Below, piece by piece: positions 45,567 to 64,000 of a stretch of 64,000 nt of DNA. The stretch comes from Candidatus Woesearchaeota archaeon. GTDB lineage: Archaea; Nanobdellota; Nanobdellia; Woesearchaeales; GW2011-AR15. The position numbers and the translations under genes are program-made. A model generated the notes under the pieces. The model did not search any database. It was not told the DNA's origin and worked only from the letters and a program-made list of their open reading frames with translations. The stretch covers positions 42,238 to 106,237 of the forward strand of contig JAVZBY010000002.1 of NCBI GenBank assembly GCA_038874655.1, in the 5' to 3' direction. Numbering within the stretch: the stretch's first letter is position 1; each line of letters opens with the position of its first letter.

Positions 45567-48500
45567 ATGAATTCAGAAAAAAATTATCCGAAATTTGTAT
45601 CATTGTTTTTAATTATATTAATTATAGTAATAAGTATAGTAATAATCAATGCACAAAATCTTTTAGAAAACAATTATATAAAAATTAATAAAAAAGAATT
45701 CTTCTTAGGTGAAACAGTTGAAATAGAGCTTTTAATAAATGACCTAAATAATATTAACATTGATTTATATACACCAAACGCAATATATAAATATCCTTTT
45801 CCTTCAAAAATTATAAAATATAAACCAATATTAGAGGGTAATTATAGATTAGTGGTTTTAAAAAATAAAGAAATATTAACAACAACAACTTTTTTTGTTA
45901 AAAAAAATGAATATAATTTGATTGAAGAAATATTAAATCAGTCAACTATTAAAAATAACGAAGAAACTGAAAACCTCTTAGATATTAATAAACCTAATTT
46001 AATTACAGATAAAGAAACATATCTTCTCAATCAAGAGGTTATAATTAGCATTAATAACCTATCCATAGATGATTTATCTAACTATAATTTAATTATAAAT
46101 AGTTCTAATACTATTATTAATTATATAGATTTAAAATCAAACACAATAAAATTTTTTCCAAAAAAACAAGGTATTTATACATTAATATTAATAAGCAAAA
46201 AATCAAATGAAGAGATAGCAAAAAAAGAAATTTCAGTTAATTCATTTAATCAACAGTTTAATAATGAAATCTCTTTAAACTATGATAATAAAACTAATTC
46301 TATTAATAATAACATAGACAATCAAAAAGAAATTATGATAAATCAATCAATAGAATATTCAGATAATTTATTTAATAATTCAAAAAATATTGAACAGCTT
46401 AACAGACAATATAATAATTTACCTTTTAAAATTAAGAATAGTAAAAATTATTTCTTAATAGCAAACATCACAATATCAAATAAAAGATTAAAAAACCTCT
46501 CATTAGACACATTTTCATTTATTAACTTATCAGATGACCTTTATGATATAGAAATTCAACCAAATATTAGACAAATAAGAAAAATAAAATTACATAATGT
46601 ATCATTTAAAGGCAATTTTGATTTAGGTCTGGAAGAAATTGATTCTCAAGCAACAAAATTTAAAGATATTAAAAAAGCAATTGCTATTGATCCAAGCAAA
46701 ATTAATTTCACAAATGGTTTTATTGAAATAAATGCTACTTCAGATGTATTGTTAAAATGTAAAGATTGGAACTTTACAGAGCAGAAATGCTTTGGAAAAT
46801 TTGAATTAATAAAAACATTAAATAAGGGACAAACCTATTTTATTGATATAAATAGCACAGATCCTGCATACTATGAGTTGGGGTTAGCATCTATAAATAC
46901 AAATAAATCCTTATACAAAGAAAATGAAACAGCACAAATATGGATTGTTGCACTAGATTATACAGGACATTTAATATCTAATGCAAATATAACTTTACAA
47001 ATAATTTCACCCAATAATGAGATTTTTATATTTTCTACAGATTCAAATATTTCCCAAATAGAATTAGGAATTTATGAATTAAATTTCACAACAAAAGAAC
47101 AAGGTAATTACACTATATTTGCAAATGTTTATAGTAATTTAATTAATACAACTTTATTTAGTTTTTTCTCTGTAGTTGATTATTATGAATTTGAAATAAT
47201 AAGAAAAAGTCCATTAACCACAGATCCTTGGCGTGATACTTTTACAACAAAATTAAAAATAATTTCAAACAACCATAATGGCTTATTTAATTTAACAGAA
47301 AAAATACCAATCGGCTTTGAGATTATTGAAACAGATGCTATTATAACAAATGATTCAAATTATTATTATCTAACTTGGAATAATTTACAAAACAATTCAG
47401 AAGTTAATTACACAGCATTAGCTCCTTTTATTACTCCTGCAGTATACGAATTTAAATCCTTTGTTTCTTATGAAATGAATAATCAATCTTTAATATTTAA
47501 CGAAGCAAAACCATGGTTCTTAGCAGTAGATCCTATTATGTACACACAAGTTTGTCAAGCACAAATTAACTCAGTAGGTCAAAATACATTTGGAAGTGCA
47601 TGTGATGGTGTTTATCCAAGCTCATGTAGCGCTACTGGAGATTTATTAACTTGTAATGATAATTTTTTTGAAACCCATACAGGCACCAACACAAACAGAT
47701 GGGCAGGTGTTAGAATTTCAGCATATGATTCAACAATAAGAGATTGTGTTTCAATAACTAGAGTTGAATTATGTTATGAATGGTGGCGTGATATAGGATT
47801 TAGCAATGCAAGAATTGCAGTTGATAGAAATAATTGGGCTTCACCAACAACAGTAACAACAACATTACCTGGAACAACTGCAAACCCAGGAGTTACTTGT
47901 GCAGATGTTACTTCTTTAGAAGCATGGACATGTGATAATTTTGACGGAACAGGACAAGCAGCACAGGCAGTAGCACAAGCACAAAGAGATAATTCTGGCT
48001 CAACAAGAACTCTTTACATTGATGTTTTGTTTTTTAATGTGACTTATTTAAGAGATTACCCTCCAAACATAACACAAAATAGACCACCTTCATATTATTA
48101 TAACGATACTTTCAGCCCAATAAATATTACATTTAATTGCTCTGCTGTTGATGATATCAGAGTTAGTAATATCTCATTATATATAACAAATCTAAATAAT
48201 AATTCATTTGCATTAAATCAAAGCTGTAATATCTTAGCAACATCTGGAAGTTGTCAATGGACTTTATTATTGCCAAGTGGAAATTACACATGGAATTGTT
48301 TAGCTTATGACAATAGAACACAAGGAACATGGGGCACAAATAGAACAATAATTATTAATTACACTATGCCACCAACACCAAAGATTAATTCTTATAGTTG
48401 TGAAATAAATACACTAAATAATTGGCAGCCATGTAATACAATAGCATATGGCAATACTATATTAAGGGTTAGAGCAAATTGTACAACAGACTCAGGATTA

Positions 48501-51500
48501 ATAACAAACACAACCTTCTTGTTATATAATCTTCCTGATAACATTTATTTATTAAATGGCACATCTACAACACAAACATCAGGATATTATATTTATGATA
48601 ATCCTGATTTACAAATAACTGACTCAGGATACTTTAATTTAAGTGTCCAATGTTTCAATTCATTTAATAAAAACCAAACAAATACTACAGCATGGAATTT
48701 AGCTTGGGGTACTTTAAGTTCTCAATTAATTTATCCATTTGAGCCTATATCTGTTCCTCAAAATTCAACTTTTAATTTTACTTCAAGATTAACTTGTTTA
48801 GGTGGTGAATGTGGTGATGTAAATGCAACATTGGATCCGATTTATATTGTTTTATTTAATCATACCTTTGAAACAGGATTAGAAGATTTTATTTGGTTAG
48901 ATGACATTTATGGCACAAATCAACCAACACAATCAGAGGGTTATGTTACAAACAGAATTTTTTGTCCTAATGGTTTTTGTTTATTTGGTGATTTGCATAC
49001 TGTAAATAATAGCAATACAGGTCCTTGGAGTGGTGGCTTTAACAAAACATTTAATTTAACATCTTATACCTATGGATTAAAAGCAAACATTACAGTTAAT
49101 ATAACTTTTGATTATAACTTAATAATAGATCAGACAACAGAAGCAGGAGAATATGTTTATCTTTATTATAGAAATATCACCTCAAAAACATCTGTACAAG
49201 GTCCTAACATACAAGGTTCAGGAGCAGGCGGAACTGATGAGGTATTTGAAAATGTCTCAGGTAGAATTTCTTTAATATTTTATAATGTCTCTGATGTTTT
49301 TTCATTTGATGTTGGTTGTTATATGACTGACACAAATGCCAATGACGAAGACGGTGGTTGTTTTATTGATAATATTTTAATTCAAGCAACTGTTGAATTA
49401 AATAAAGGAAAAATTTCTAATATCCCCGGAACAAAACCCTTCTGGACATTGTCACCTAATCCTTATACAGAAGCGAATTTAGCATGTTTAAGAAATATGA
49501 TAGCTGGCCAAAGTTGTAACACTACTTGGGTTGTTAATGCAACAGGTCCTTTATACACGACATGGGACTTTTTTGTTTTATATGAGCCTACAGAATATTC
49601 AAGTTATCTTTCATTTAATAAATCTAAATCAGTTAATATAACAATAACCGATATGGTTAGACCTGTTATTACTTTTGTACAATGTCAAAGAAATTCAACT
49701 TCTTGGGTTTCATGTGATTCTATAAAATACAATGAATACATCTCAGGTGTTAGAGGCACTTGCACATATACAGAAGGCATTATAACAAGTATGAGTTTTA
49801 ATTTAAAAAACCAATTTTACAATAGGACTTATTTTGATGTTTCAACCACAGACAATTCAACTAACTATTGGACATCAACCTTTAGTCCAATTAGAGTTAA
49901 TAACTCAGGTAATTTTGCTTTGTATTCAAGGTGTTATGCAAACTCTCTATTTGGTGATTATTCATTAAATTGGTCTTTACCTTATGGAACAATCTATATT
50001 TCATGGATAAATTTATCTAGTGAAGTAAATGTAACGCAAAATAAATTTTCTAATTTTTCTGTTTTATTAACATGTCAAGGAGGAGAATGTATAAACATAA
50101 GTGCATTTATTGATCCAGAAATAGGCCAACAATTTGCATTAATGACCTTTGATGGTTCAACTAATTTTCCATTAAGGGATGGTCTATGTAACACAGCAAC
50201 AGATACATGCGCATTAAGTAATCCTTGGGATGATTTTGACAATTGTATTGCAGGAAATGGTCAATATGGAATATGTGCATCAAGATATGCTGGCTCTGGT
50301 GGAACAGAAAGAGGTTTATTATGCCAAGGATGTGATAGAAATAATGCAGGAAACACAGGCGGCTTATATATTTCATTAAACTCAACACCATGTGGTGGCT
50401 ATCCTTGTCAATATATTTTTATTTCATATTATCAAGCAGTACAAAGCATGGATGCAGCAAATGAAGGCAGTGTTGTTTTAGTTAGGGATAATGATGGTAT
50501 TTGGCGAGAAGTTTCAAGATGTATTGATAATGACTTATGCGATTGTGATAGAATAGCAGGATGTACTTTAGCCACAATCGGACAATATGCACAATATGTA
50601 AATGTAAATTTATGTGATATCCCAGGAATTGATTGTACTCAACCATTAGATATATTTTTCACTTCTTACGCAACTAATGTAAATCAAGGAACTGGAGATT
50701 ACTTTATGTGGGATCAAATTAATATAACAGGCTATTTACCAAAAGGGATTATATCTTATGGAAGTGGCTCTCCTTTTTATACTACCTATGCTAATCCTGT
50801 TTATAGACAAAATAATTCATGTTTAGCTTATTTAGATGTAGGCCAATCTTGTATAATTACCTGGCCAGTAAATGCAACAGGAAACTTAAATTCTCTACAC
50901 GAATTTTATGTAAATGCCACAACCTTTAATAATCAAACAACTCAAAGTTCAATAATTGATGTAAGAATAACAGATAATAAACTGCCTTATGTTTCTTTTA
51001 TAACTTTGAATCCAATTAATCCAACTTCTTATGATAATTTAAATTGCTCATTTATAATAAATGATGCTAATTATTTTGATAAATTATATGCAAACATAAC
51101 ATGGTATAGAAATGATATTGTTTATTCAAATCAAATGATATCCATTAATAATAATCAATTAACTTCAGTAATTTTATCAAGCTCCAATACAAATAACGGA
51201 GAAGTTTGGCATTGTGGTATAACACCTTATGACGAAACTGTTTATGGAAATCAATTAAATTCAACAAAAGTCAATATCCTAATTAGTCAGCCACCAATAA
51301 TCTCTAATGTACAATGCCAAAGAAACTCAACTTCCTGGGTATCATGTTCAGATATTAAGTTTAATGATATTTTAACAATGGTTAGAGCACAATGCATAGA
51401 TTTAGATGGTTATGTAATGAATGTTACTTTTAATTTAACAAATTTTGAAGACAAATATTTATTTTTTAAAAATACAACCTATATGCCAGAATCAGGATAT

Positions 51501-54500
51501 TACTACTTTAATAATACAGATATCCTAATAAGAGATTCTGGTAATTTTAATTTATCTGTTTCTTGTATTGATGATACTAATGTAGAAACAGTTTATTATT
51601 TAACTTGGCTTGTTCCATTTGGAAAATTAAAAGGGCAATGGTTAAATCCCCCAAATATTAATGTAAATGTTACTAGGTATAAATTATCTAACTTCTCAGT
51701 TAGAATTATATGCGAGGGTGGTGAATGCGGAAATATTACTGCGGTTTTAGATCCCTTAATATTATATCCACAAGCGAACATGGATTTTGAATCTCCAACT
51801 AATTTTCCATTAGCCACTGGACAATGTGGCACTGGCGCAGGTTGGCAATGTGCAGATTCTTCTCCTTGGGATGATTTTGACAATTGTATAGGCGGAAATG
51901 GTGTTTATGGTATTTGTGCATCAACAGAAGCAAACTCAGGAGAAACAGGCATTAGAGGTTTAGAATGTAGGGGTTGTGATAGAGCAGATGCATTAAACCA
52001 AGGTGGATTATACATAAACATTCCAGCAAGATCTTGCAATGACTATGTTTGTGAGCAAATCAATATTTCTTTTTACCAAATTGTTCAAAGTATGGATAAT
52101 GCAAATGAAGGAAGCGCTGTCTTAGTAAGAGATGAAGATGGAATTTGGCGTAATTTAACAACTTGTATGGATAATCAACCAAGATGTGATTGTGATGTCA
52201 TTCCTGGCTGTACTAGAGCAGAAATGGGTGCTTATGCTCAATTTTTCAAAAAAGATTTATGTCAAGTTCCAGGAATAAATTGCAGTCAAAATATAAGTAT
52301 TTTATTTACTTCTTATAATCTAATAAATCATGGAACAGACGATTATTTCGCATGGGATAAAATTTTAGTTGAGAAATATGGACAAAAAGGCATTATTCCA
52401 GTTGGTAGTGGTTTTCCATTTTATGTAATTGAAAACAATCCTAGAACATGGAATGATTTTTCATGTTTATATAATATGACCTCTGGAGACTCATGTGAAA
52501 TTACATGGCAAGTAAATGCAACTGGAAACTATAATAAAACACATGAGTTTTTTGCTTATTTTAATTCAACATATTCAGCTATCGAATTAAATGAAACAAA
52601 ACATATTTATGTAACAATTACAGATAACTTTCCACCGAGAGTTACTTATGTCGAAATTGGTCCAGAAGTTGCGCTTAATGATACAGATATCTATTGTAGC
52701 TTTATTATAACAGATCCAAATTACTTTGATAGTTTATGGGCTAATATAACATGGTATAGAAATAAAACTTTCTACTTTAATCAACAAGTTCCTATATCCA
52801 TAAATACACTAACACAAGTTTATTTATTGGCAAATAATACAGAGCCAGGTGAATATTGGCACTGTGGTGTAACACCTTTTGATGGTTCTATTTATGGAAA
52901 TCAAGTTAATTCAACAAATTTAACAATTTATTTATATCCACCCCCAAGCATAAATTCAATACAATGTAATGTGAATGGATTATGGAAAGATTGTAAAAAT
53001 ATTTTGTATTTTACTAATTTTTCAGCAATAAGAACTAATTGTTCCTCAAATGAAGGAATGGTTAATGCAACATTTAACTTCACAAATATTCCTGATAATA
53101 AAGTATTCTTTAACAATTTAACAACAACCTACTCAAATGGCTATTTTATTTTTGATTTTGAAGACATAAACATTACAGATTCAGGTGAAATGGAAATTTA
53201 TGCAAAATGTATAGATAATGTTAATCAAGTTGTTTATGGAAAAGTAAATTGGACAATTCTTTGGGGAACACTAACAGCATCCTTAGTTTATCCAGACTCA
53301 GATACAAGTGTTCAAAGAAATAACTTCTTTACTTTCCAAGCAAGAGTAACTTGCTCGGGGGGTGAATGTGGAAACATAAATGCAACATTAGATCCTTATA
53401 CAAATTCAACTATTTATGATTTTAAGCAAGGATATAATATTGATAAATTCGCTTGGGTCATAGATAGTAATAATAATCCACCAGAGTCATTGCCAAATTC
53501 AAGAACAGCATTAACTTTAGCACAAGTTGCACTGATAAATGTTTCAGATAATAATAGATATACAATGCCAGATCCAGGAGCGGGTGATTGGATTTCATTG
53601 GATATGATAATGAATATAAAAGAAAAAAGAGAAGACATAACAAAAATGCAATTTTATTTTGAGGGTTATCCTAATATAGCATCAACATTACAAATATATG
53701 CATGGAATTTTAATACAAATACATGGAACTCATTAGGAACACAGTCTTTTTCAACAGGTTCTGACCAAATAATGACAGTAAATATAACATCAAATATATT
53801 AAATTACATAAATGCTTCAAACAATAATATAAGATGGCTTTTATTAAATACATTAACTAGTGAATACATATTAGTTGATTATGTTTATGTAAATATAACT
53901 TATAATGCGTATAAAGGAATTATCCCAAGACAAGAAGGTGCAATTCCTTTTTATACAAGAGACTATAACCCAAAAGATTATACAAATCAATCCTGTTTGG
54001 GCAATATGATATCCGGCCAATCATGTATTGCATCATGGTTAGTTAATGCCACAGGACCTTTAGGTTCAACACATGAATTTTTTGTTTATTTCAATGCAAC
54101 AAATTATTCACAATATATTATGCCTAAAGAAACAACCCATATCTTTATTACAATAACAGATTCAACATTAGTACCGCCAATTGTTATTTTAAATGATCCT
54201 CAAGATAATTTATACACAAATAATCAAAATATTATATTTAATTGTTCAGTTACAGATAATTTTAATTTAAAAAATATTAGTTTAGTAGCTGATTTCAACG
54301 GAATTTTTGATATAAATGAAACTTATCAAATAACTGGAACATCAAACACATCTTTATTTTACAAATATTTAGATGATGGAAAATACATATGGAATTGTTT
54401 GGCTTATGATTCAGATAATAATTTAGATTGGGGAAATTCAAATAGAACTTTAACAATTGATACAAAAGAGCCAACAATAATCTTAAATAATCCTTTAAAT

Positions 54501-57500
54501 GAGTCCTCTTTTACTACAACAAACCTTGCTTTAAACTTTACAGTAATTGATGCATTAGATAAAATACTAAATTGTGATTTATACTTAAATGGATTTTTAT
54601 ATCAGCAAAATATTAATGCAAACAATAATTCTAATACAATAATTAATTTAATAAATTTAACACCTAATACTTACAAATGGTTTATTACTTGTATAGATGA
54701 TGCAACAAATATGAATGTTAGTGAAGAATATATATTTTATATATCAGATTTACCTCCAAGTGTCAGCTTATTAACACCTAACAATATTTATTTTAGAACA
54801 CCAAACATTTCATTATTTTATTTTGCTACAGATAATTTAAATATTAATCTATCAACTTTGATATTAAATGGTTATCCTTTTGCATATCAATATAATTTAG
54901 GAACATCAGTAATATCAAGTTTTAATTTAACTTATATGCCAGAGGGATTATATAATTGGACTGTTAATGTTTCTGATTCTAGTAATTTAACAGATCAAGC
55001 CCCATATAGATATTTCACGATAGATTATACAGAACCAATAATTTACATTTATGCTCCAGATAATAATTTGACAATTAATGAAACACAAACAAGAATCAAC
55101 TTTACAGTTGTAGATAATTTAGATTTCATGATAATGTGTAATCTCACTATAAATAATCAAATTGCTCAAACAAACATACCAGCAATTAATAATTCTTTTG
55201 TTTCATATTTAATTACAAATTTCTATGATGGTTTAAATTATTGGAATTTAACATGTTTTGATGATGCAGGTAATTATATCACTTCTGAAACGAGGATACT
55301 AAATGTTAGTGCTCCTCCAAATGTTGTTTTAAATTATCCCTTTAATAATCATTTCCAAAACCAACAAAATATAACTTTATATTATACACCACAAGATAAT
55401 GTTAATTTATCTGTCTGTGAATTATTTATTAATGGTCAATATAATCAATCAAACATTGAAATAACAAATGGAGTACAAAATACATTTGAATTAACATCCT
55501 TAAGTGAAAACATATACTCTTGGTCTGTAAGATGTAATGATACTTCTAATCTTTCAACAATGTCAGAAACAAGAATATTTACAATAGATTTGACAAAGCC
55601 AACAATTTATTTATTATATCCAAATAATGGTGATACTATTTATGGAAAATGGACCAATTTTAATTTTAGTGTTATTGATAACTTTGATATAAACTTATCT
55701 TGTAATATTACAGTTGACGGATTAATAAGAAAATCTAATTTACCTGTTTTGAATAACACACCAACTAATTTTACAATAAATGTAAGTGATGAAGGTCCTC
55801 ACACATGGTATATAACCTGTATAGATGATGCAACTAATTTTAATGTCAGTGAAACAAGAAATTATTTCACAACAAATCCGCCAGAAGTGCAATTAGTTTT
55901 CCCTAATAATGGAGCAATTATTAATTATAACTTAATTAATTTCACTTATATACCGATTGATGATAATTTAGCAAGTGCAACCTTAATTTTAAATGGACTA
56001 AGAAATGAAACAAATACTACTTTATACAATGAACTAGAGAATTATTTCAGAATTTATTTAACAGATGGAATTTATAATTGGACTGTCAATGTAACAGACG
56101 CAACAAATCTTTATACAATGCCTGATGTATTAACTTTTACAATAGATTCAACACCTCCATTAATAACAATACATCATCCTGCTGGTTTTGAAATATTAGA
56201 TTGGAATAATATCACCTTCAACTTTACTGTGAGTGATAATTTATTTCAACCAATTTATTGTAATATAAGTATTAATTCAGTTCCACAATTTACTAATATT
56301 CCAGTAAATAATAATTCCAATGTAATTAGATATTATTCTCTAAATGATGGTACTCATTCATGGCAAGTTAGATGTATTGATTTAACAAATAATACTGCAA
56401 TACAAACACAGAATTTCATAGTAGAAGCACCACCAAGAGTAAATCTAATAAATCCAGTAAATCAAACAAGAACAACACAACAATCTTTTAATTTCCAATA
56501 TTTACCCTATGATGTCTTTGGTCTTTATAATTGTACTTTAATATTAGATAATAAATTAAATGAATCTAGTTCCTCTATATTGAATAACCAAATTAACACT
56601 TTATTTGTTTCATATATACCAGAAGGTTTACATAATTGGACAGTAAGATGTATTGATAATCCTCCAGATTATAATTCATATCAGCCAGAACCTTGGCAAT
56701 TTAGAATTGACTTAACAGGACCAACAATAATTCTAAAATATCCTATGCAAGACCAAACATTTAATTTAAACAATATTACTTTTAATTACACGGCAATTGA
56801 TTCTGATAATATTATAATTGATTGTAATATATCTGTGTCAGACCCATATGGAAATAGATTAAATGCAACTTCAATGCCTGCAGGATATGATCATATAATA
56901 ACTATAACAAATCTTGCAGATGGAGATCATTATTGGAATGTTACTTGTGTAGATGATCTAGGAAATGTTAATACAAGTGAAACAAGAAGATTTATTATTA
57001 ATCAACCAGATTTATTTACAAATAATAATCTTGTTTTCCTAAACAACATAAATCCAGATTTATATGAAAACATTACAATTTCCATAAATGTATCAAATAT
57101 AGGTGGACAACCAGCAAACAATGTTTTAGTAAACTTCTATGATGGAAATCCGAATTTAGGTGGCTTATTTATAGGTAATGATACTAACTCAGTTGCAATA
57201 AACCAAACTATTGCATTTACAACATCATGGCTAATAACACCAGGTTATCATACAATTTACATTAGTGTAGATCCATATAATCAGATTTCTGAATTAGATG
57301 AAACTAATAATAATGCAACAATTAATATAAGTGTATTATGGGCTAACATTACAAATCCAAAAAATCAATCCTGGTTTAATACATTAATAGTTCCAATAAA
57401 CTTTACTGCATATGATTACACAGGAAATTCAATTACTTATATTGTTTTAATTGATAATACTCCTAATGGTCAAAATGGTTATGTAATTGATAGCATAAAT

Positions 57501-59957
57501 AATGAATTAAATGTTTCATTTACACAAGGCATACATACAATAAAAATTAGAGTTAATGACACTTATTATTACTTAGGAAACACATTACAAAGAATAAAAG
57601 ATTCATTGCCCATAATTTTATACATTGATACAACTCCACCAACAATTACATTTAATACATTTAATTTAACATGGTTTAATTCAGAGCCAATAATAAACTT
57701 CACTATAACAGATAATTTAGATAATTTAATTAATTATATAATTTATATAAATAATAATCCAGTTACATCTGGATCAGCAAATTCAAGCCCACAAAACATA
57801 ACAATATATAATTTACAAAATGGAACTTATGAAATCTATATAGAAGCATTTGACGAAGCACTTAATTATAGAAATTCCTCTGTATTAACAATTTATCTAG
57901 ATACTGTAAAGCCAACAATCTACTTATTGGCACCTCAAAATGGAATCTCTTTATTAGCTAATTATACAACCTTTAATTTTTCAGTAATTGATAATTTAGA
58001 CACATTATTACAATGTAATTTAACAATTGATGCTAAAGTGAATGTTTCAAACATATATGCTTATAATAATTCTATAAATAGCACAGCTGTTTATAATTTA
58101 AGAGAAGGCACTCATTATTGGAATGTTAGTTGTTGGGATGGCAACTTAATAACACCTGTAAGTTTAATAAACACTTCAGAAACATATTACTTCAATGTAT
58201 ATAATCCACCTATAATAAAGCTAATACAACCAGAAAACAACAATTGGACAAATAACCCAGAAGTTATTTTCTTCTTTAATGTTAGTGAGGAAACAGGATT
58301 GCAAAACTGCTCTATTTTATTAAATGGAATTATTCAAAATACAAAACAAGGTAATTTACTTAATAAAAATGGTTTAAATAATATAACTTTAACAAACTTA
58401 AATGGCACATATTCTTGGCAAATTGAGTGTTATGATAATACAACAATTTATAATTATGCAATCTCAGAATCAAGAACTTTAAATGTTGATTTAGATGCAC
58501 CGATTCCTTATATAGAAACATTAAATAATACTTGGTTTAATTATAATAATCCCTTAATCTATTTTAATATATCTGATAACATGGCTTCAATAATTAATTA
58601 TACTTTTTATGTGAATTCAACACAAAACAGACAAGGCAGTGTAAATAATGCAACATCCACATCTATTAATTTAAATCCAATTCAAGATGGTTATTATTTA
58701 TTAACATTAGAGGCATTTGACTATGCTTACAATAGAAGAAATAGTTCCTCTATAACAATTTTTGTTGATACAACTAAACCAACAATAAGTTTATTATCTC
58801 CAATTAATGGATTCAGCACATCAGATACAAATATATTGTTTAACTTTACATCATTAGATAATTTAGCAAAAACAATGATATGTAATTTAACAGTTGACAA
58901 TCAAATTATTAAATCATTCAACACGACATCAGGGTTATCTAATTACACTTATTTAAATATGGCAGCAGGTATTCATTATTGGAATGTATCCTGTTCAGAT
59001 TTAGTTGGTAATTTCAATACAAGTGAAACATATTACTTTATAATCCCATTGCCTGATTTATATGTATCAGCAGATTATATCCTCTTTAATACAACAGCAC
59101 CAGAAGAAAATACAAATATAACTATAAATGCAACAATCTTTAATATAGGAAACACAACTGCATACAATGTTACAATACAATTCTGGGATGGTCACTATTT
59201 AAATGGAACACAAATTAATGGAAATTTTACATATAATATTTCAGCAGGCCAAAACATAACTATTAATTTATCATGGAAAGTAAGTTCTGTAGGAGACCAC
59301 TTTATCTATGTTATAGCTGATCCACCCTTACAAACAAATGGAACGATTAAAGAATCTAATGAAACAAATAATTATGCATATAAACTTATAATTGTTGGTA
59401 GTTATACATATATTTATGGTAATTTCTCAGGATTCCTAAATTTAAAGGACTTAAACAATATAACTGTCTATCAATGGGATATTAATGATTTAAACGGTTC
59501 AAAAATATTTGCTGTTGATTATGATAGTATTATAGATTGGCAGAAATTACAAGCAATCTCTAGAGATATTTATAATAACTATGTGTCTAATGACTTTTAT
59601 GAAATAGATTTAGCATTAAGAATGGAAAATAACTCTGATTCTATAAATAAAACATGGATCTATAATAATAATCCTTATTACACAAAAAATTATAATGTTT
59701 TCCTCAATAATATACAAAATATTCCTTTTATTAACTCAACAAATACTACAAATTTCCAAACAGGTATTTTATGGGATTACTCTGATGGAAACACGCAATA
59801 TAATGGGACACAGGATTTAGTATTTTTTACAATTGTTAATATAAATCAAACAGGAATACATGGAAAATATGACTACGAATTAAGAGTTCCAGCAAACTTA
59901 AGATATTATAAACAACCAAATATAGCTACAATTGCATTATATACAGAATTAAAATAA
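45567..59957 (+). CDS. Giant (4796 aa) secreted adhesin-like surface glycoprotein
   Basis: Signal peptide; MG2-like domains; four CxGGEC..DP scaffold modules with inserts; about 16 Ig-like P.I.L..P...W...C.D repeats; two CARDB domains; no C-terminal TM. Confidence 0.9.
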   Translation: MNSEKNYPKFVSLFLIILIIVISIVIINAQNLLENNYIKINKKEFFLGETVEIELLINDLNNINIDLYTPNAIYKYPFPSKIIKYKPILEGNYRLVVLKNKEILTTTTFFVKKNEYNLIEEILNQSTIKNNEETENLLDINKPNLITDKETYLLNQEVIISINNLSIDDLSNYNLIINSSNTIINYIDLKSNTIKFFPKKQGIYTLILISKKSNEEIAKKEISVNSFNQQFNNEISLNYDNKTNSINNNIDNQKEIMINQSIEYSDNLFNNSKNIEQLNRQYNNLPFKIKNSKNYFLIANITISNKRLKNLSLDTFSFINLSDDLYDIEIQPNIRQIRKIKLHNVSFKGNFDLGLEEIDSQATKFKDIKKAIAIDPSKINFTNGFIEINATSDVLLKCKDWNFTEQKCFGKFELIKTLNKGQTYFIDINSTDPAYYELGLASINTNKSLYKENETAQIWIVALDYTGHLISNANITLQIISPNNEIFIFSTDSNISQIELGIYELNFTTKEQGNYTIFANVYSNLINTTLFSFFSVVDYYEFEIIRKSPLTTDPWRDTFTTKLKIISNNHNGLFNLTEKIPIGFEIIETDAIITNDSNYYYLTWNNLQNNSEVNYTALAPFITPAVYEFKSFVSYEMNNQSLIFNEAKPWFLAVDPIMYTQVCQAQINSVGQNTFGSACDGVYPSSCSATGDLLTCNDNFFETHTGTNTNRWAGVRISAYDSTIRDCVSITRVELCYEWWRDIGFSNARIAVDRNNWASPTTVTTTLPGTTANPGVTCADVTSLEAWTCDNFDGTGQAAQAVAQAQRDNSGSTRTLYIDVLFFNVTYLRDYPPNITQNRPPSYYYNDTFSPINITFNCSAVDDIRVSNISLYITNLNNNSFALNQSCNILATSGSCQWTLLLPSGNYTWNCLAYDNRTQGTWGTNRTIIINYTMPPTPKINSYSCEINTLNNWQPCNTIAYGNTILRVRANCTTDSGLITNTTFLLYNLPDNIYLLNGTSTTQTSGYYIYDNPDLQITDSGYFNLSVQCFNSFNKNQTNTTAWNLAWGTLSSQLIYPFEPISVPQNSTFNFTSRLTCLGGECGDVNATLDPIYIVLFNHTFETGLEDFIWLDDIYGTNQPTQSEGYVTNRIFCPNGFCLFGDLHTVNNSNTGPWSGGFNKTFNLTSYTYGLKANITVNITFDYNLIIDQTTEAGEYVYLYYRNITSKTSVQGPNIQGSGAGGTDEVFENVSGRISLIFYNVSDVFSFDVGCYMTDTNANDEDGGCFIDNILIQATVELNKGKISNIPGTKPFWTLSPNPYTEANLACLRNMIAGQSCNTTWVVNATGPLYTTWDFFVLYEPTEYSSYLSFNKSKSVNITITDMVRPVITFVQCQRNSTSWVSCDSIKYNEYISGVRGTCTYTEGIITSMSFNLKNQFYNRTYFDVSTTDNSTNYWTSTFSPIRVNNSGNFALYSRCYANSLFGDYSLNWSLPYGTIYISWINLSSEVNVTQNKFSNFSVLLTCQGGECINISAFIDPEIGQQFALMTFDGSTNFPLRDGLCNTATDTCALSNPWDDFDNCIAGNGQYGICASRYAGSGGTERGLLCQGCDRNNAGNTGGLYISLNSTPCGGYPCQYIFISYYQAVQSMDAANEGSVVLVRDNDGIWREVSRCIDNDLCDCDRIAGCTLATIGQYAQYVNVNLCDIPGIDCTQPLDIFFTSYATNVNQGTGDYFMWDQINITGYLPKGIISYGSGSPFYTTYANPVYRQNNSCLAYLDVGQSCIITWPVNATGNLNSLHEFYVNATTFNNQTTQSSIIDVRITDNKLPYVSFITLNPINPTSYDNLNCSFIINDANYFDKLYANITWYRNDIVYSNQMISINNNQLTSVILSSSNTNNGEVWHCGITPYDETVYGNQLNSTKVNILISQPPIISNVQCQRNSTSWVSCSDIKFNDILTMVRAQCIDLDGYVMNVTFNLTNFEDKYLFFKNTTYMPESGYYYFNNTDILIRDSGNFNLSVSCIDDTNVETVYYLTWLVPFGKLKGQWLNPPNINVNVTRYKLSNFSVRIICEGGECGNITAVLDPLILYPQANMDFESPTNFPLATGQCGTGAGWQCADSSPWDDFDNCIGGNGVYGICASTEANSGETGIRGLECRGCDRADALNQGGLYINIPARSCNDYVCEQINISFYQIVQSMDNANEGSAVLVRDEDGIWRNLTTCMDNQPRCDCDVIPGCTRAEMGAYAQFFKKDLCQVPGINCSQNISILFTSYNLINHGTDDYFAWDKILVEKYGQKGIIPVGSGFPFYVIENNPRTWNDFSCLYNMTSGDSCEITWQVNATGNYNKTHEFFAYFNSTYSAIELNETKHIYVTITDNFPPRVTYVEIGPEVALNDTDIYCSFIITDPNYFDSLWANITWYRNKTFYFNQQVPISINTLTQVYLLANNTEPGEYWHCGVTPFDGSIYGNQVNSTNLTIYLYPPPSINSIQCNVNGLWKDCKNILYFTNFSAIRTNCSSNEGMVNATFNFTNIPDNKVFFNNLTTTYSNGYFIFDFEDINITDSGEMEIYAKCIDNVNQVVYGKVNWTILWGTLTASLVYPDSDTSVQRNNFFTFQARVTCSGGECGNINATLDPYTNSTIYDFKQGYNIDKFAWVIDSNNNPPESLPNSRTALTLAQVALINVSDNNRYTMPDPGAGDWISLDMIMNIKEKREDITKMQFYFEGYPNIASTLQIYAWNFNTNTWNSLGTQSFSTGSDQIMTVNITSNILNYINASNNNIRWLLLNTLTSEYILVDYVYVNITYNAYKGIIPRQEGAIPFYTRDYNPKDYTNQSCLGNMISGQSCIASWLVNATGPLGSTHEFFVYFNATNYSQYIMPKETTHIFITITDSTLVPPIVILNDPQDNLYTNNQNIIFNCSVTDNFNLKNISLVADFNGIFDINETYQITGTSNTSLFYKYLDDGKYIWNCLAYDSDNNLDWGNSNRTLTIDTKEPTIILNNPLNESSFTTTNLALNFTVIDALDKILNCDLYLNGFLYQQNINANNNSNTIINLINLTPNTYKWFITCIDDATNMNVSEEYIFYISDLPPSVSLLTPNNIYFRTPNISLFYFATDNLNINLSTLILNGYPFAYQYNLGTSVISSFNLTYMPEGLYNWTVNVSDSSNLTDQAPYRYFTIDYTEPIIYIYAPDNNLTINETQTRINFTVVDNLDFMIMCNLTINNQIAQTNIPAINNSFVSYLITNFYDGLNYWNLTCFDDAGNYITSETRILNVSAPPNVVLNYPFNNHFQNQQNITLYYTPQDNVNLSVCELFINGQYNQSNIEITNGVQNTFELTSLSENIYSWSVRCNDTSNLSTMSETRIFTIDLTKPTIYLLYPNNGDTIYGKWTNFNFSVIDNFDINLSCNITVDGLIRKSNLPVLNNTPTNFTINVSDEGPHTWYITCIDDATNFNVSETRNYFTTNPPEVQLVFPNNGAIINYNLINFTYIPIDDNLASATLILNGLRNETNTTLYNELENYFRIYLTDGIYNWTVNVTDATNLYTMPDVLTFTIDSTPPLITIHHPAGFEILDWNNITFNFTVSDNLFQPIYCNISINSVPQFTNIPVNNNSNVIRYYSLNDGTHSWQVRCIDLTNNTAIQTQNFIVEAPPRVNLINPVNQTRTTQQSFNFQYLPYDVFGLYNCTLILDNKLNESSSSILNNQINTLFVSYIPEGLHNWTVRCIDNPPDYNSYQPEPWQFRIDLTGPTIILKYPMQDQTFNLNNITFNYTAIDSDNIIIDCNISVSDPYGNRLNATSMPAGYDHIITITNLADGDHYWNVTCVDDLGNVNTSETRRFIINQPDLFTNNNLVFLNNINPDLYENITISINVSNIGGQPANNVLVNFYDGNPNLGGLFIGNDTNSVAINQTIAFTTSWLITPGYHTIYISVDPYNQISELDETNNNATINISVLWANITNPKNQSWFNTLIVPINFTAYDYTGNSITYIVLIDNTPNGQNGYVIDSINNELNVSFTQGIHTIKIRVNDTYYYLGNTLQRIKDSLPIILYIDTTPPTITFNTFNLTWFNSEPIINFTITDNLDNLINYIIYINNNPVTSGSANSSPQNITIYNLQNGTYEIYIEAFDEALNYRNSSVLTIYLDTVKPTIYLLAPQNGISLLANYTTFNFSVIDNLDTLLQCNLTIDAKVNVSNIYAYNNSINSTAVYNLREGTHYWNVSCWDGNLITPVSLINTSETYYFNVYNPPIIKLIQPENNNWTNNPEVIFFFNVSEETGLQNCSILLNGIIQNTKQGNLLNKNGLNNITLTNLNGTYSWQIECYDNTTIYNYAISESRTLNVDLDAPIPYIETLNNTWFNYNNPLIYFNISDNMASIINYTFYVNSTQNRQGSVNNATSTSINLNPIQDGYYLLTLEAFDYAYNRRNSSSITIFVDTTKPTISLLSPINGFSTSDTNILFNFTSLDNLAKTMICNLTVDNQIIKSFNTTSGLSNYTYLNMAAGIHYWNVSCSDLVGNFNTSETYYFIIPLPDLYVSADYILFNTTAPEENTNITINATIFNIGNTTAYNVTIQFWDGHYLNGTQINGNFTYNISAGQNITINLSWKVSSVGDHFIYVIADPPLQTNGTIKESNETNNYAYKLIIVGSYTYIYGNFSGFLNLKDLNNITVYQWDINDLNGSKIFAVDYDSIIDWQKLQAISRDIYNNYVSNDFYEIDLALRMENNSDSINKTWIYNNNPYYTKNYNVFLNNIQNIPFINSTNTTNFQTGILWDYSDGNTQYNGTQDLVFFTIVNINQTGIHGKYDYELRVPANLRYYKQPNIATIALYTELK

Positions 59958-59978: not shown

Positions 59979-61841
59979 ATGAAAAATAAAAACATAATAA
60001 GAATTACTTTATTTTTATTTGTTTTAATATTATTTAGTTTTATTATTGTTATTTATATTGCAAAAGCACAATGTCAATTAAAAGAAATTCCGTTTTTTGA
60101 ATTAAATGAAGGGGACATTTTTAATTATACTTTAAATTTTGTAAATCAAAACATTTCTGAAAAAGGATTATCAGAAATTAAAATTTCACTTATAAAGATA
60201 AATTCTTCAATAAATCCTGTGATTAAAAATAATCTAATTAATTTTAAAGCAGATCAAAACTCAGGAAACAAAAATTCGTTTTTAATTGTTTCAACAATGG
60301 AAAATGGGTGCTATGATGTTAAGAAATTTGATTTTTTTGTTTATTTAAAACCTAAAATTATGGAAAAAAACCCAATAGAGGATTATTTAGAAATTTATGA
60401 GACACAATCAATAAAATTTTATGCTTCAGCATATTCTTTTTATGATACTGATGTAAAAACAGAGTGGTATTTAAATGGAATTAAACAAAAAGAGAGTTCT
60501 AATTCTTATATCTTTTTCACAAATTATAGTTCAAAAGGATTATTCACATTAGAATATGTTGCAAAAGATAAAAGGCAAAACACAACAATAAAATGGTTAA
60601 TAAATGTAAAAGATAAAAATAGAAAACCTATTTTAAGATTTAATATTCCTGACTTTGTTTTAACAAATTATACAAGAGGAAGATTATTGAATTTAAATGA
60701 TTACTTTCAAGATCCAGATTTAGACAAATTAAAATTTGAATTAGTTTATTTTGATAAAATTAATAATTCTATTAAAGAAAAGTCCTATGAAATTTTTAAT
60801 TTTAGTATTAAAGATAATGGTGATTTTGAAGTTTATCCAATTAAAAACATTTATTTAACAGAATATCTTAAAGTAATTGCTTATGATTTTCAAGGAGAAA
60901 AAGCAGAAAGCAATATTTTCTTTATGAAATTAGTTAATTCAGATAATATAAGTTATATCTTTCTAAATACTTCAAAAAAAGAACAATGTAAACCAAATAT
61001 ACAATGTACAGAATGGAGTCCATGTTTGATTACAAACATTAGAACAAGAGAATGTTTTGATGTAAATAATTGTAATTCAGAGAACACTACAATTACAGAA
61101 ACAATGCATTGTGATTATAATGCTACTTGTAATGATGGAATTTTGAATCAAGGTGAAGAAAAAGTTGATTGTGGTGGCCCATGTGAACCCTGTCCAACTT
61201 GTGATGATGGTATTTTAAATCAAGGTGAAGAAAAGGTTGATTGCGGCGGTCCTTGTCAAGCTTGCGAAAATTGTTATGATGGTATAAAAAATCAAAATGA
61301 AATATTTACCGATTGCGGTGGTCTATGTAAAAGTTGTTTATTATTAGATATTATTAACTTCATAAAAAGTTATTATTATTTAGCATTTATATTTATATTT
61401 TTATTAATTATAAAAATCTATTCAAAAAACATTAGTAGTTCTGATAAAATAAAAAATTATATCTTTTATTCAAAACTATTTAATTTTTTACCTAAAAAAA
61501 TTCCAGAAAATTATAAAGAGATTTTTACTCAAACAATTTCAGATTTAACAAGCATAAAAAATGATATTTTAAATCTTGAAGATAAAGAAAAAATAAAAGA
61601 GAAATTTTATAATATTATAGATAACTTTTACAAAAATTTTTTAGAATTAGATCTTGTAAATAATATTACTGTAAAAAATTCTTCAAAAAAAATAATAAAT
61701 CCCTTTTTAAGAGAATTAATCTTGTTATTGTATTATGATACAAGAGATATTTCAGTTGAATCACCTTTTTATAGAATTGAGTTAAATGAAAAAATAGATC
61801 AAACAATTGCAATATTAAATAAGATTAGGGATTTATTATGA
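59979..61841 (+). CDS. Single-pass surface protein with Ig-like domains and Cys-rich repeats
   Basis: Signal peptide, LNDYFQDPD.DKL cadherin-like motif, CTEWSPC..RTREC, three C.DGI.NQ.E...DCGG.C repeats, TM, cytoplasmic tail. Confidence 0.82.
   Translation: MKNKNIIRITLFLFVLILFSFIIVIYIAKAQCQLKEIPFFELNEGDIFNYTLNFVNQNISEKGLSEIKISLIKINSSINPVIKNNLINFKADQNSGNKNSFLIVSTMENGCYDVKKFDFFVYLKPKIMEKNPIEDYLEIYETQSIKFYASAYSFYDTDVKTEWYLNGIKQKESSNSYIFFTNYSSKGLFTLEYVAKDKRQNTTIKWLINVKDKNRKPILRFNIPDFVLTNYTRGRLLNLNDYFQDPDLDKLKFELVYFDKINNSIKEKSYEIFNFSIKDNGDFEVYPIKNIYLTEYLKVIAYDFQGEKAESNIFFMKLVNSDNISYIFLNTSKKEQCKPNIQCTEWSPCLITNIRTRECFDVNNCNSENTTITETMHCDYNATCNDGILNQGEEKVDCGGPCEPCPTCDDGILNQGEEKVDCGGPCQACENCYDGIKNQNEIFTDCGGLCKSCLLLDIINFIKSYYYLAFIFIFLLIIKIYSKNISSSDKIKNYIFYSKLFNFLPKKIPENYKEIFTQTISDLTSIKNDILNLEDKEKIKEKFYNIIDNFYKNFLELDLVNNITVKNSSKKIINPFLRELILLLYYDTRDISVESPFYRIELNEKIDQTIAILNKIRDLL
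61128..61337 (+). repeat. Three 72-nt coding tandem repeats (CxDGIxNQxExxxDCGGxCxxC)
   Basis: Units start at 61128, 61200 and 61272; the first two are near-identical in protein with mostly synonymous DNA differences. Confidence 0.9.
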
Positions 61842-64000
61842 AAAAATATAATGACATTACTAATAAAATTAAAATAAAAATATTAAAAAAAATATTGCAA
61901 TTAATTTTTAGGTTATACTTTAGATTATACTTATTTATTTCATGTTTTATATTATTTATATTATTTTTTAATCCTGTCTTTTCACAAGAATTAAATTTTT
62001 CACTAGAATTAAATAAAGTCAATTTTTTTCTTAATGAACCTGTAATTATAAATTTAGAAGAGGATTATTATAAATTAAATAACACAAATTCATTTGATAA
62101 TTTAACATTAAAAATAATATCCCCAAACCATTATTATAATTATTTAGGAGGTCTAGATAAAAGATTAATTTTTCAACCAAATGAAATTGGTAAGCATTAT
62201 ATAGAATTATATTTTAATAATGAGCTGGTAAAAAAATTAGAATTTATTGTTTTTGAAACCAATTCTCAAGTTTCTGAGAATTCTTCTGTTTTAAATAACT
62301 TAAATATATCGCGAAACAATATATATAATAATGTTTCTGAAAATCAAACAGAAATTATGATTATTCAAAATTCAAATTTTTCAACAAAACAATCGAATAT
62401 AAAATTATTAGATATCATAAAAATTAATGTAAAACAAAATTATTCTTTAGATGAAAATGTTTTTATCACACTAACAAAAAATGAACAAACTCTTTATGCA
62501 ATAAATCCAAGAGAAGACATCAATTTTTCAAAATTAATAATACATTCAAATAAAGATTATGTTTATGAAAATCCAAAAAATAAAATAATTTTTAAACCTT
62601 CTGAACTTGGTAAACATGAAATTATTTTATATGATACTTTTGATAATGAAGTAGCAAGAGCATCATTTAATGTTATAGAAAATAAAAAATTTATTATTAA
62701 AGATAGTAAGGGGAAAAAAATAGATGCAACATTTCAATACAAAGATAAAATAAAAAAAAATATTTCTGAATTAATTTCTGAAATTAAAAATGAAAAAAAT
62801 CAAAAAATAGAATTAACAGTTTTACCTAATCTAAAAAATATAAAAAAAATTACTTTTAAAGATATAAACCTAGAAAATAGTTTTGATTTTTATCTAGAAG
62901 ATCTTGATACATTTAATTTAGAAAGAAGTTTCATAAAAGCATATGCAATTAATCCTGAAAATTTAGATTTCTCAGAAGCAATTTTAACAAGCATAAGTCA
63001 AGGAAAAACACTTTATAAGTGTGCAGAATGGAATTTTCAAGAACAAAAATGTTATGGTATTTGGAAAAAAATAATGTCTTTAGTTCCTGGACAAGAATAT
63101 AATGTTATTATAACAAAAAATGACCCTGCATATGCAGAAAGTAATGAACTTATTGAACCTAAACCTGTAAGTGGTTTTGTTTTTATGTCAGATAATACAA
63201 GAGCAAATAATGGTATTCCAGTAAGAATTTTTAATAAAGCAAATGGTGAAAGTGTTTTAACACAGGTTTATGCACCACCAATTCCAATATATAAAGGAGC
63301 TTATTCTGCTAATATTTATGGAATAACTGGAGATTCTATTGTTGTAAGAGCATGGAATTCTACACATTATGGCGAAACAAATGCAACTTTATTAGCAACA
63401 ACAACTTATGTTAATATAACAATTCAATATTTTAAAGGAAGTGAACCCAATGTTTCAATAATTTATCCATTAAATAATTCAATTTTTTATTTAGGTCAAA
63501 ATTTTAATATAACTGCAAAAGTTCAAATATTAAATAACAATGCAGAAAAGTGTTATGCTTCTTTTATTAGCACATTAGCTGAACCAATAACAGGGCAAAG
63601 TAATACAATTTTTTTAGGAGACATAATGCAAAATAATGAAATTACTTTTATGTTTAATTTAACTGCAATAAAAGGCGGCTATGAAAAATTAATTGTTAAT
63701 GTTTCTTGTTCAACAGATACAATTCTAGATGGCTTAAATATAGCAAGAGTAAATTTAACTTTTATTGATAATGTTAAACCAGAGATAACAATATTTAAAC
63801 CTCTAAATAATGAAGAATCATTAAATCCTATTAAGTTTATATTTAATGTTTCAGATCATACGGGCATAAAAAACTGCTCATTAATTTTTAATGGTAATTT
63901 AAATCAGACAATTTTTAATCCACAAATGTATATTTTACATTCTTTTAATTTAACCTTGCAAGCAGGAACATATAATTATAACATTGATTGTTATGATAAT
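61838..64000 (+). CDS. Second large surface protein, paralogous N-terminus to the giant adhesin; runs off window end
   Basis: Not in ORF track. ATG at 61838 overlaps the previous TGA (ATGA) and the frame appears open to 64000. Signal peptide; contains KAYAINPENLDF...LYKCAEWNFQEQKCYG...NDPAYAE. Confidence 0.88.
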   Translation, partial: MKKYNDITNKIKIKILKKILQLIFRLYFRLYLFISCFILFILFFNPVFSQELNFSLELNKVNFFLNEPVIINLEEDYYKLNNTNSFDNLTLKIISPNHYYNYLGGLDKRLIFQPNEIGKHYIELYFNNELVKKLEFIVFETNSQVSENSSVLNNLNISRNNIYNNVSENQTEIMIIQNSNFSTKQSNIKLLDIIKINVKQNYSLDENVFITLTKNEQTLYAINPREDINFSKLIIHSNKDYVYENPKNKIIFKPSELGKHEIILYDTFDNEVARASFNVIENKKFIIKDSKGKKIDATFQYKDKIKKNISELISEIKNEKNQKIELTVLPNLKNIKKITFKDINLENSFDFYLEDLDTFNLERSFIKAYAINPENLDFSEAILTSISQGKTLYKCAEWNFQEQKCYGIWKKIMSLVPGQEYNVIITKNDPAYAESNELIEPKPVSGFVFMSDNTRANNGIPVRIFNKANGESVLTQVYAPPIPIYKGAYSANIYGITGDSIVVRAWNSTHYGETNATLLATTTYVNITIQYFKGSEPNVSIIYPLNNSIFYLGQNFNITAKVQILNNNAEKCYASFISTLAEPITGQSNTIFLGDIMQNNEITFMFNLTAIKGGYEKLIVNVSCSTDTILDGLNIARVNLTFIDNVKPEITIFKPLNNEESLNPIKFIFNVSDHTGIKNCSLIFNGNLNQTIFNPQMYILHSFNLTLQAGTYNYNIDCYDN

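Follow-up and report, generated by a model that had tools for sequence, protein, structure and literature searches.

In the chaperone-usher adhesins FimH and PapG, the binding part lies on the N-terminal side of the protein and is followed by a C-terminal pilin domain that has no donor strand of its own, hence these proteins are found only at the tip of the pilus. In the TasA fibres, the anchor or nucleator, TapA, is itself related to the TasA subunit. Little is understood of how DPANN archaea, whose lifestyle is one of attachment to other cells, hold on to and exchange material with other cells. Here we analyze a 64,000-nucleotide stretch (the window) from a Candidatus Woesearchaeota archaeon, contig JAVZBY010000002.1, which encodes a giant secreted protein of 4796 amino acids (aa). 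By profile comparison, the C-terminal domain, or tail, of this giant is a cut-down copy of a domain that ends many proteins of Woesearchaeota-like DPANN archaea and belongs to a large, apparently undescribed family.

Two groups of described fibres frame the comparison. For the Pam pilus of Candidate Phyla Radiation (CPR) bacteria, a preprint (PMC13278184) describes a locus with several pilins, which polymerise through donor-strand exchange. Its tip pilin, PamT, is devoid of the donor/linker strand and is put forward as the initial acceptor, and PamR, a terminator tethered to the membrane, places its N-terminus in the final pilin of the chain. For the TasA superfamily, which takes in TasA, the archaeal bundling pili AbpA/AbpX, the Sulfolobus threads and the cannulae, the sources (PMC12518558; bioRxiv 10.64898/2026.01.04.697558) describe Sec-secreted subunits of 100-350 aa that polymerise extracellularly, chaperone-free, via an N-terminal donor strand.

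At the present locus, one domain family occurs in three architectures (complete subunits, an anchor type fused to a membrane ATPase, and an adhesin type at the tail of the giant), and the three are kept together by gene clustering and by co-occurrence among genomes. The comparison turns on the following features, in window coordinates:

45567..59957, + strand: giant secreted protein, 4796 aa, with an N-terminal signal-like hydrophobic stretch at aa 6-35
59394..59957, + strand: C-terminal domain of the giant, aa 4610-4796 plus the stop codon (187 aa), an adhesin-type family member that lacks the leading strand, beta1
20135..23794, + strand: membrane ATPase of the HerA/DUF87 type, 1219 aa, with a large predicted extracellular loop between two transmembrane (TM) helices
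20264..20332, + strand: first TM helix (signal anchor) of the ATPase, predicted by hydropathy, its position kept in 11 orthologs
20333..20989, + strand: predicted extracellular N-terminal domain of the ATPase, aa 67-285, an anchor-type family member in which beta1 is present
20369..20401, + strand: predicted leading strand beta1, AQGGRITELNI, aa 79-89, present in the ATPase and complete types and absent from the adhesin type

A preliminary description of the window had aligned the tail with the head of the ATPase by eye, and its coordinates hold: the tail starts at aa 4610 (window position 59394), and AQGGRITELNI is at 20369..20401. Whether the two are homologous could not be read from a pairwise comparison, in which BLASTP gave E 0.013 with 41/183 identical positions and 28% gaps, a result that proves nothing alone. 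Chance likeness of Asn-rich, low-complexity beta proteins in an AT-rich genome might account for such a score: the window has a G+C content of 17-30%, and a first direct comparison of small profiles was likewise non-significant (Prob 0.9%). Larger profiles gave a different picture. We aligned the complete family (A1, and A2 with 123 stand-alone subunits), the adhesin type (A3, 41 sequences), the ATPase N-terminal domain (A4, 12 sequences) and the CARDB domains of adhesins joined to their tails (A5, 41 sequences); the complete-family profile used in hhalign held 157 sequences. Orthologs were gathered in two rounds (ATPases 9, then 11; adhesin tails 14, then 39; complete members 150, then 119 further), and one of the 40 adhesin-type loci fetched, L033, was set aside when its longest open reading frame (ORF) gave no match. 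Relatives of the window proteins carry the source labels Woesearchaeota, Pacearchaeota or Nanoarchaeota.

Direct comparison of A4 with A3 aligned ATPase columns 29-188 with adhesin columns 2-169 over 140 columns at Prob 97.2% and E 3.1e-11. Against the complete family, the ATPase domain scored 99.7% (E 1.5e-26) and the adhesin type 99.1% (E 4.2e-19), while controls made from reversed profiles and from the CARDB domains of the same adhesins gave Prob 0.1-0.5% and E 0.12-0.54 in 5/5 cases. The profile comparison proposed in the preliminary description was thus significant both directly and through a third family. Six of its eight by-eye blocks recur when the two profiles are aligned directly; the outermost two, first and last, find support via the third family only. 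Plain BLASTP supplied bridges as well: anchor-type proteins of two other genomes, G129 and G233, match the ATPase N-terminal domain (1e-6 and 3e-7) and also stand-alone subunits (1.6e-7 and 1.6e-8), thereby linking both groups.

When all 3167 six-frame ORFs of the window's own genome (G000) were scanned with HMMER, the complete-family profile matched exactly ten, with noise starting from 0.74. Seven of the ten are complete members (1e-63 to 9e-79); the other three are the giant (6e-8, profile columns 52-215), the ATPase (4e-6) and a 920-aa protein (7e-5). Conversely, the A4 profile picked up 7/7 of the genome's complete members (E 5.5e-15 to 1.2e-7), and the complete-family profile matched the ATPases of genomes G085 and G087 at 1.1e-16 and 2.8e-17. 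The profile comparisons, the BLASTP bridges and the negative controls refute chance similarity, to which we give practically no credence: E values of 3e-11 in the direct comparison and 1e-19 to 1e-26 in the transitive ones stand against 0.12-0.54 in the controls, and the HMMER matches are confined to ten proteins of the genome. Judged by these comparisons, the tail of the giant, the ATPase N-terminal domain and the complete family are homologous.

The complete members show what an uncut copy looks like. The family domain is ~210 aa long and C-terminal; a profile search of 1.84 billion representatives of clusters at 50% identity returned 1345 cluster representatives at E<=1e-3 and 449 at E<=1e-30. 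Complete subunits are ~240 aa long, often encoded in tandem arrays, and sometimes carry an N-terminal passenger. Their layout comprises a Sec-type signal peptide, an N-terminal extension, a Ser/Thr-rich linker, beta1 and the core. Across the 123 stand-alone members, the mature N-terminus reads x-P-x-G-[PA]-x-[ILV]-x-[YFV] and is followed by a Ser/Thr-rich stretch of ~15 residues; then come the beta1 motif G28-[NT]-[IV]-T-x-[LIV]-x-[IL], a short turn, and the invariant W44-x-[GA]-[YF]-x-G49-N, which marks the next strand (the W-strand).

The window's genome has seven complete members, six of them stand-alone proteins with signal peptides and one a 615-aa fusion with the domain at its end, and all seven lie on the same contig as the giant and the ATPase. 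A search with the tail recovered the tail of the 920-aa protein and four ORFs of 246-268 aa, and the profile added three members. The preliminary description had predicted that free subunits would be encoded elsewhere, and the six stand-alone secreted paralogs and the fused complete copy answer to that prediction; the motif it proposed searching for, A.GG.I..LN...W.G.YG, occurs among the 3167 ORFs in 6/7 complete members and the ATPase and in no others (regular-expression search). HMMs of profile columns 1-58, 28-58 and 3-14 detected no further protein made of the leading part only, their best match outside the seven complete members being the ATPase at E 0.095.

Long members (>300 aa, up to 2359 aa) make up 28 of the best 150, and in 28/28 the domain ends 0-1 residues from the C-terminus. 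Several long complete members with passengers (P0040, P0057-P0060, P0071, P0105 and others) share a ...[ST]DYASI... junction ~10-15 residues N-terminal to the P-x-G-A motif, so the N-terminal extension is internal in these proteins. Two other identities for the domain were considered and rejected. The subunits do not look like type IV prepilins, as by eye their N-termini show ordinary Sec signal peptides followed by P-x-G-[PA]. Nor does the domain look like a C-terminal sorting signal, as the stand-alone proteins are little more than the domain itself. All family members are named "hypothetical protein" in their sources, and Pfam, NCBIfam and PADLOC returned nothing for the family domain. An Atlas model of one subunit, sa3 (predicted TM-score 0.74), found only its own family above a TM-score of 0.5.

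We next consider what the adhesin type has lost. Two features are needed here:

59052..59393, + strand: CARDB domain (Pfam PF07705) directly before the tail, its last strand predicted from the junction alignment to continue into the tail
61838..64000, + strand: second adhesin, a 920-aa frame that continues past the window end, with a predicted beta1-less C-terminal domain

The giant contains two CARDB stretches and one Big_13 match (Pfam), and its sequence ends in ...ALYTELK. The CARDB assignment is firm, at 51.6 bits against a cut-off of 22.7 (E 1.2e-13; P0002, aa 85-193) and at 80.4 bits (E 1.2e-22) on the whole giant. By hydropathy, the giant has no TM-like hydrophobic stretch besides aa 6-35 and so none at its C-terminus, in line with the earlier claim that the adhesin has no C-terminal TM anchor. 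Likewise, the sole hydrophobic stretch of the 920-aa adhesin is at aa 22-50. Its C-terminal domain, just outside the window (G000:C2:106283-106825), is 45% identical to that of the giant (E 7.7e-38, own-genome search with the giant's tail), and in both proteins the domain reaches the C-terminus.

In the adhesin type as a whole, profile columns 1-46 are empty in 54/54 aligned rows, which bears out the earlier remark that the adhesin copy lacks AQGGRITELNI. The N-terminal extension, the linker and beta1 are all absent, across >30 genera for beta1, and the domain stands at the very end of anchor-less proteins of 513-9107 aa. In the direct hhalign alignment, adhesin column 2 faces ATPase column 29, and the beta1 motif ahead of the W-strand is missing from the adhesin tail and present in the ATPase. 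What precedes the W-strand is the last strand of CARDB (E-x-NE-x-NN...) or of another immunoglobulin-like (Ig-like) domain, in 16/16 and 39/39 cases. The adhesin type has in addition an insertion around LQA[IL][SG]RD and has lost a Cys pair. With extension, beta1 and membrane anchor all absent, these proteins have the make-up of tip proteins devoid of a donor element, and we infer that they sit at a tip.

Losing beta1 would matter most if it were a core strand, and covariation points that way, although we treat it as suggestive evidence only. After an earlier run on 232 sequences proved too noisy, mean-field analysis of 345 sequences (Meff 318, 22578 pairs) recovered the conserved Cys pair 97-144 as a positive control at z 4.0. 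Columns in beta1 were coupled to beta2 (35-45, rank 31; 34-50, rank 33; 35-53, rank 60), with an antiparallel ladder at z 6.1; to the DF[QE] strand (37-190, rank 28; 35-193, rank 66); and to the C-terminal strand (29-208, rank 12; 35-215, rank 24), with a parallel ladder at z 3.5. These couplings suggest that beta1 is a core strand, lying against beta2 and the strands at the C-terminus, and that a copy without it plausibly has an open groove. Conservation at the partner columns G184, Y190, E193 and L215 remains strong in the beta1-less type, an observation of little weight as only three columns pass the occupancy filter.

A groove of this kind might be closed within the same chain. The tail could be complete in cis, or tolerant of the loss, with the CARDB or other Ig-like neighbour covering the gap, and would then work on its own, perhaps as an end-cap that binds or stabilises. 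The W-strand always begins 1-3 residues after a beta-strand of the preceding domain, which implies tight domain packing; the LQA[IL][SG]RD insertion and the lost Cys pair hint at a remodelled fold; and binding in trans has no direct evidence in its favour. Yet three core elements have beta1 columns among the positions with which they covary most strongly, the partner columns stay conserved where beta1 is gone, no spare sequence lies between the preceding domain and the W-strand to fold back, and the preceding domain is not always CARDB. We consider closure in cis unlikely, if well worth keeping in mind, and the distribution of the copies among genomes, to which we now turn, adds a further point against it.

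Of 121 genomes of the order, 29 gave a match to the anchor-type query, 50 to the complete family and 39 to the adhesin type (at E<=6e-22). In intersections read from the tables, and taken descriptively, the complete family was present in 29/29 anchor-positive genomes and the adhesin type in 26/29, while 38/39 adhesin-positive genomes had the complete family. Strand-less copies occur almost exclusively in genomes with complete copies, usually adjacent to them, which speaks against a tail sufficient in itself. Across 301 genomes of the phylum, the A4 profile matched 83 (including the unpublished G306), 82/83 of them in the same order.

Anchor, adhesin and complete forms also lie in conserved gene clusters in other genera, which supports reading them as a module. 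On the G000 contig, a 1105-aa protein precedes the ATPase, which is followed by proteins of 298 and 351 aa and then by ~20 kb with signalling genes; next come the giant, a protein of 620 aa and the 920-aa adhesin, ~3 kb further on two subunits and a 307-aa protein, and later more subunits and a 605-aa protein. In G085 (G085:C1:757312-780402), the ATPase is followed by proteins of 274 and 385 aa, adhesins of 2346 and 2612 aa, a 164-aa protein and two subunits, and G087:C33 repeats this set, with the subunits numbering five and with a 306-aa protein homologous to the 307-aa one of G000. A more compact 8-kb cluster in G129 and G233 combines a strand-less adhesin, subunits (by ORF scan, two in G129 and one in G233), a TM protein of 554/574 aa and an anchor-type protein of 509/545 aa.

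The anchor type forms an architectural class of its own, as its domain is N-terminal with other domains after it, unlike the C-terminal position elsewhere in the family. It keeps beta1, lacks the N-terminal extension and the linker, and has two invariant Cys; in the ATPase and 11 diverse orthologs, beta1 begins ~12 aa past the TM helix. The 509- and 545-aa proteins of the G129 and G233 clusters carry the domain free of any ATPase, immediately after a signal or anchor sequence, and no ATPase was found within 16-18 kb around those clusters, which implies that the ATPase is not essential to the module.

Proteins so deployed might alternatively build a two-dimensional lattice or sheath, like a surface layer, with the adhesins and the ATPase inserted by side-by-side contacts between homologous domains. 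Genomes hold 1 to 11 copies of the complete family, often in tandem, and all of these paralogs are secreted, Asn/Thr-rich and apparently at the cell surface; a membrane-bound copy of the domain next to the bilayer would serve well to anchor a lattice; and neither an assembly chaperone nor a dedicated peptidase could be recognised among the cluster genes. What a lattice leaves unexplained is that the adhesin copies are consistently beta1-less and the membrane copy keeps beta1. Moreover, tandem arrays of ~200-aa subunits beside tip-like giant proteins are more typical of pilus loci (chaperone-usher, sortase). We regard a lattice as improbable.

The reading that we prefer, tentatively and at somewhat less than even chances, is that the adhesin tail is an acceptor into which a strand from a complete subunit or an anchor docks in trans. 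It is the simplest explanation of three properties seen together: the loss of a probable core strand, the position at the end of an anchor-less giant, and the complete copies encoded alongside. On this model, beta1-less adhesin copies would carry a vacant slot; the slot would be filled in trans by the strand of a complete subunit or of the anchor; docking would hold the adhesins on a short fibre, or stalk, of small subunits; and this stalk would be rooted in the membrane by the anchor-type copy. Such an arrangement would obey donor-strand logic, with a tip that can only accept (as in FimH, PapG and PamT) and a homolog in the membrane as its base (as in TapA and PamR).

Which segment would be donated is a separate matter. 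With beta1 as the swapped strand, polarity would work, the tip having no beta1 and the base having it by the membrane, but the base copy would be incomplete. The N-terminal extension of complete subunits, x-P-x-G-[PA]-x-[ILV], together with its linker, looks like a classical donor and could be the actual donor instead of beta1.

Several points weigh against docking in trans. AQGGRITELNI is part of the complete ATPase domain, which would itself be opened if that strand were given away; and were the N-terminal extension the donor in a linear fibre, adhesin and anchor would both be acceptors and tip-to-base polarity would vanish. Couplings of the N-terminal extension are weak (9-213 at rank 141, 9-215 at rank 148), with no ladder above z 3.0, and the covariation set is small and makes intra- and intermolecular contacts indistinguishable. 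The fold, the groove and any insertion in trans are conjectures from sequence. No known donor-strand family could be linked: no Pfam family recurs in >2 of the 123 members, A1 and A2 brought up no PDB chain at E <0.1 in sequence searches, the sa3 model found nothing outside its own family above a TM-score of 0.27, and the TasA-family profile PF12389 matched 0/6 and 0/123 members and nothing in the own genome (across the 301 genomes of the phylum it gave 3 weak partial matches). Finally, the co-occurrence counts come from related, non-independent genomes and are descriptive only, and the A1 profile may catch some adhesin-type copies in them. The donor-strand interpretation offered in the preliminary description is therefore partly supported: the homology and the missing strand stand, and strand donation in trans is kept as a suggestion.

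The remainder of the ATPase and the genes around it complete the picture:

20993..21217, + strand: CarboxypepD_reg-like beta-sandwich in the predicted extracellular loop of the ATPase, aa 287-361 (PF13620, E 9.5e-9)
22055..22126, + strand: second TM helix, predicted by hydropathy, just N-terminal to the cytoplasmic ATPase
22196..22894, + strand: HerA/FtsK-like P-loop ATPase core, assigned from Pfam, NCBIfam, Walker A and PDB matches
16816..20133, + strand: 1105-aa putative surface protein directly upstream of the ATPase, with weak PKD and MopE matches
24928..25983, + strand: 351-aa protein kept next to the ATPase, 41-43% identical to ATPase neighbours in G085 and G087

From its N-terminus, the ATPase has a basic segment, a TM helix, ~570 predicted extracellular residues, a second TM helix and the HerA/DUF87 ATPase, with TM-like stretches at aa 38-75 and 636-669. 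The extracellular part holds the family domain, the CarboxypepD_reg domain, a GPGIGPG-rich linker and further beta-rich sequence; the linker, at 21230..21364, is elastin-like. PF01935 places the protein in the HerA/DUF87 family (E 4.6e-12, a score of 47 bits where the cut-off is 23.2), and the Walker A motif, GSTGGGKS, is at aa 716. Among PDB chains, HerA was matched at 2e-6 to 6e-3, and NCBIfam matches to HerA, TraD and CedD were weak and far under the cut-offs. A second HerA-like ORF of 660 aa, L020 (G085:C1:754800-756779), lies just upstream of the full G085 ATPase; it aligns with aa 541-1174 of its G000 counterpart at 45% identity, and the N-terminal domain is absent from it.

A module of ~75 aa recurs at the ends of otherwise unrelated cluster proteins (BLASTP E 1e-5 to 3e-14): in the ATPase at aa 1086-1157 (23390..23605), in the 298-aa protein at aa 8-82 (ORF 23851..24747), in a 1480-aa protein at aa 1378-1468 (28518..32960), at the C-terminus of a 357-aa protein (G000:C2:108395-109465), and in small proteins of the G085 and G087 clusters. 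It may be a shared cytoplasmic interaction domain.

The neighbours of the ATPase are partly conserved. Relatives of the 1105-aa protein stand beside the ATPase in G087 (985 aa, E 1.8e-30) and near it in G085 (654 aa, E 1.1e-12; BLASTP), and the 351-aa protein matches its G085 and G087 counterparts at E 5e-58 and 4e-66, with no Pfam match above cut-off. Between the ATPase and the giant lie a KaiC-like ATPase, a PAS/GAF sensor, an SBP_bac_3 protein, a histidine kinase fused to a solute-binding protein domain, and a second KaiC-like protein recognised by a weak match (27671..28507, 34744..36561, 36590..37444, 38269..42084 and 42757..43287); such signalling genes are absent from the compact G085, G087 and G129 clusters examined. 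The 620-aa secreted protein between the two adhesins (59979..61841) has no Pfam match, and BLAST detected no homolog of it in the G085 and G087 clusters.

Beyond the window, the 307-aa protein that follows the subunit pair (G000:C2:111708-112628) is 40% identical to the 306-aa protein of G087 and has no Pfam match. The 605-aa protein (G000:C2:115789-117627), which has a signal peptide and a C-terminal TM helix, is 31-33% identical to the 554/574-aa proteins of G129 and G233 (E 1e-74 and 3e-96). A protein of 190-199 aa is encoded in or beside subunit arrays (G000:C2:152493-153146; L022, G087:C33:2556-3152), the N-termini being alike by eye; our guess is that it is a local regulator.

These results define a large protein family (1345 clusters at 50% identity) that has no Pfam or PDB sequence match, and they place it in a conserved module with a membrane ATPase and with the largest proteins of these small genomes. 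Both the family and its fusion to the ATPase appear undescribed in the literature searched, in which no description of a HerA ATPase fused to a subunit domain was found. Should strand docking be true, it would explain how giant adhesins that have no membrane anchor are attached to the cell. Even if docking is wrong, the three-form family and its synteny are a target for structure prediction, cryo-electron tomography and metaproteomics. A bolder proposal, to which we assign a low probability, lower still than that of a lattice, is a fibre type not seen before: an undescribed subunit fold, tips as long as 9107 aa that are joined on by their strand-less copy, and as base a copy of the same domain fused across the membrane to a hexameric HerA/FtsK-type motor. 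The filament would then be coupled, mechanically or energetically, to the cytoplasmic ATPase, for use in assembly, in retraction or in the passage of DNA or other cargo between symbiont and host.

By sequence, the locus belongs to none of the Pam, chaperone-usher or TasA families, and the resemblances are ones of organisation. Like the chaperone-usher adhesins, the giants would have their binding part on the N-terminal side of a strand-deficient C-terminal domain. In chaperone-usher pili, however, what is missing is the C-terminal strand of an Ig fold, filled by the N-terminal extension of a neighbour, whereas here it is the predicted N-terminal strand of an unrelated ~210-aa domain, and there is no usher, chaperone or outer membrane. 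With the TasA superfamily, the present family shares Sec-secreted subunits, the presence of multiple paralogs in a genome, and a subunit relative in the putative role of anchor or nucleator. It differs in that PF12389 is unmatched in the 123 members and no TasA-like cluster came up in the Atlas structure search with the sa3 model; nor was a gene for a signal peptidase noticed next to the present subunits. Neither strand-less giant adhesins nor an ATPase-fused base is known from TasA-type systems.

The membrane ATPases of the HerA/FtsK/VirD4-like group (DUF87 proteins, conjugative coupling proteins, CedD) share with the present ATPase one or more TM segments followed by a cytoplasmic P-loop ATPase; the present protein differs in placing ~570 predicted extracellular residues between its helices, which open with a homolog of a secreted subunit. 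The closest analogue in logic is the Pam pilus, which belongs to an ultrasmall single-membrane episymbiont and pairs a tip proposed as acceptor only with a membrane-bound donor base. That system is bacterial, with Ig-like pilins, FimC/PapD-like membrane chaperones and support from cryo-electron microscopy; the present one is known from genes alone, with no detectable link to Ig pilins and no chaperone recognised, and its putative tips range from 513 to 9107 aa. Its putative base, moreover, is a homolog of the subunit fused to a HerA ATPase, and if docking takes place as proposed, the system would be an archaeal, motor-linked counterpart to the donor-strand pili of CPR bacteria.

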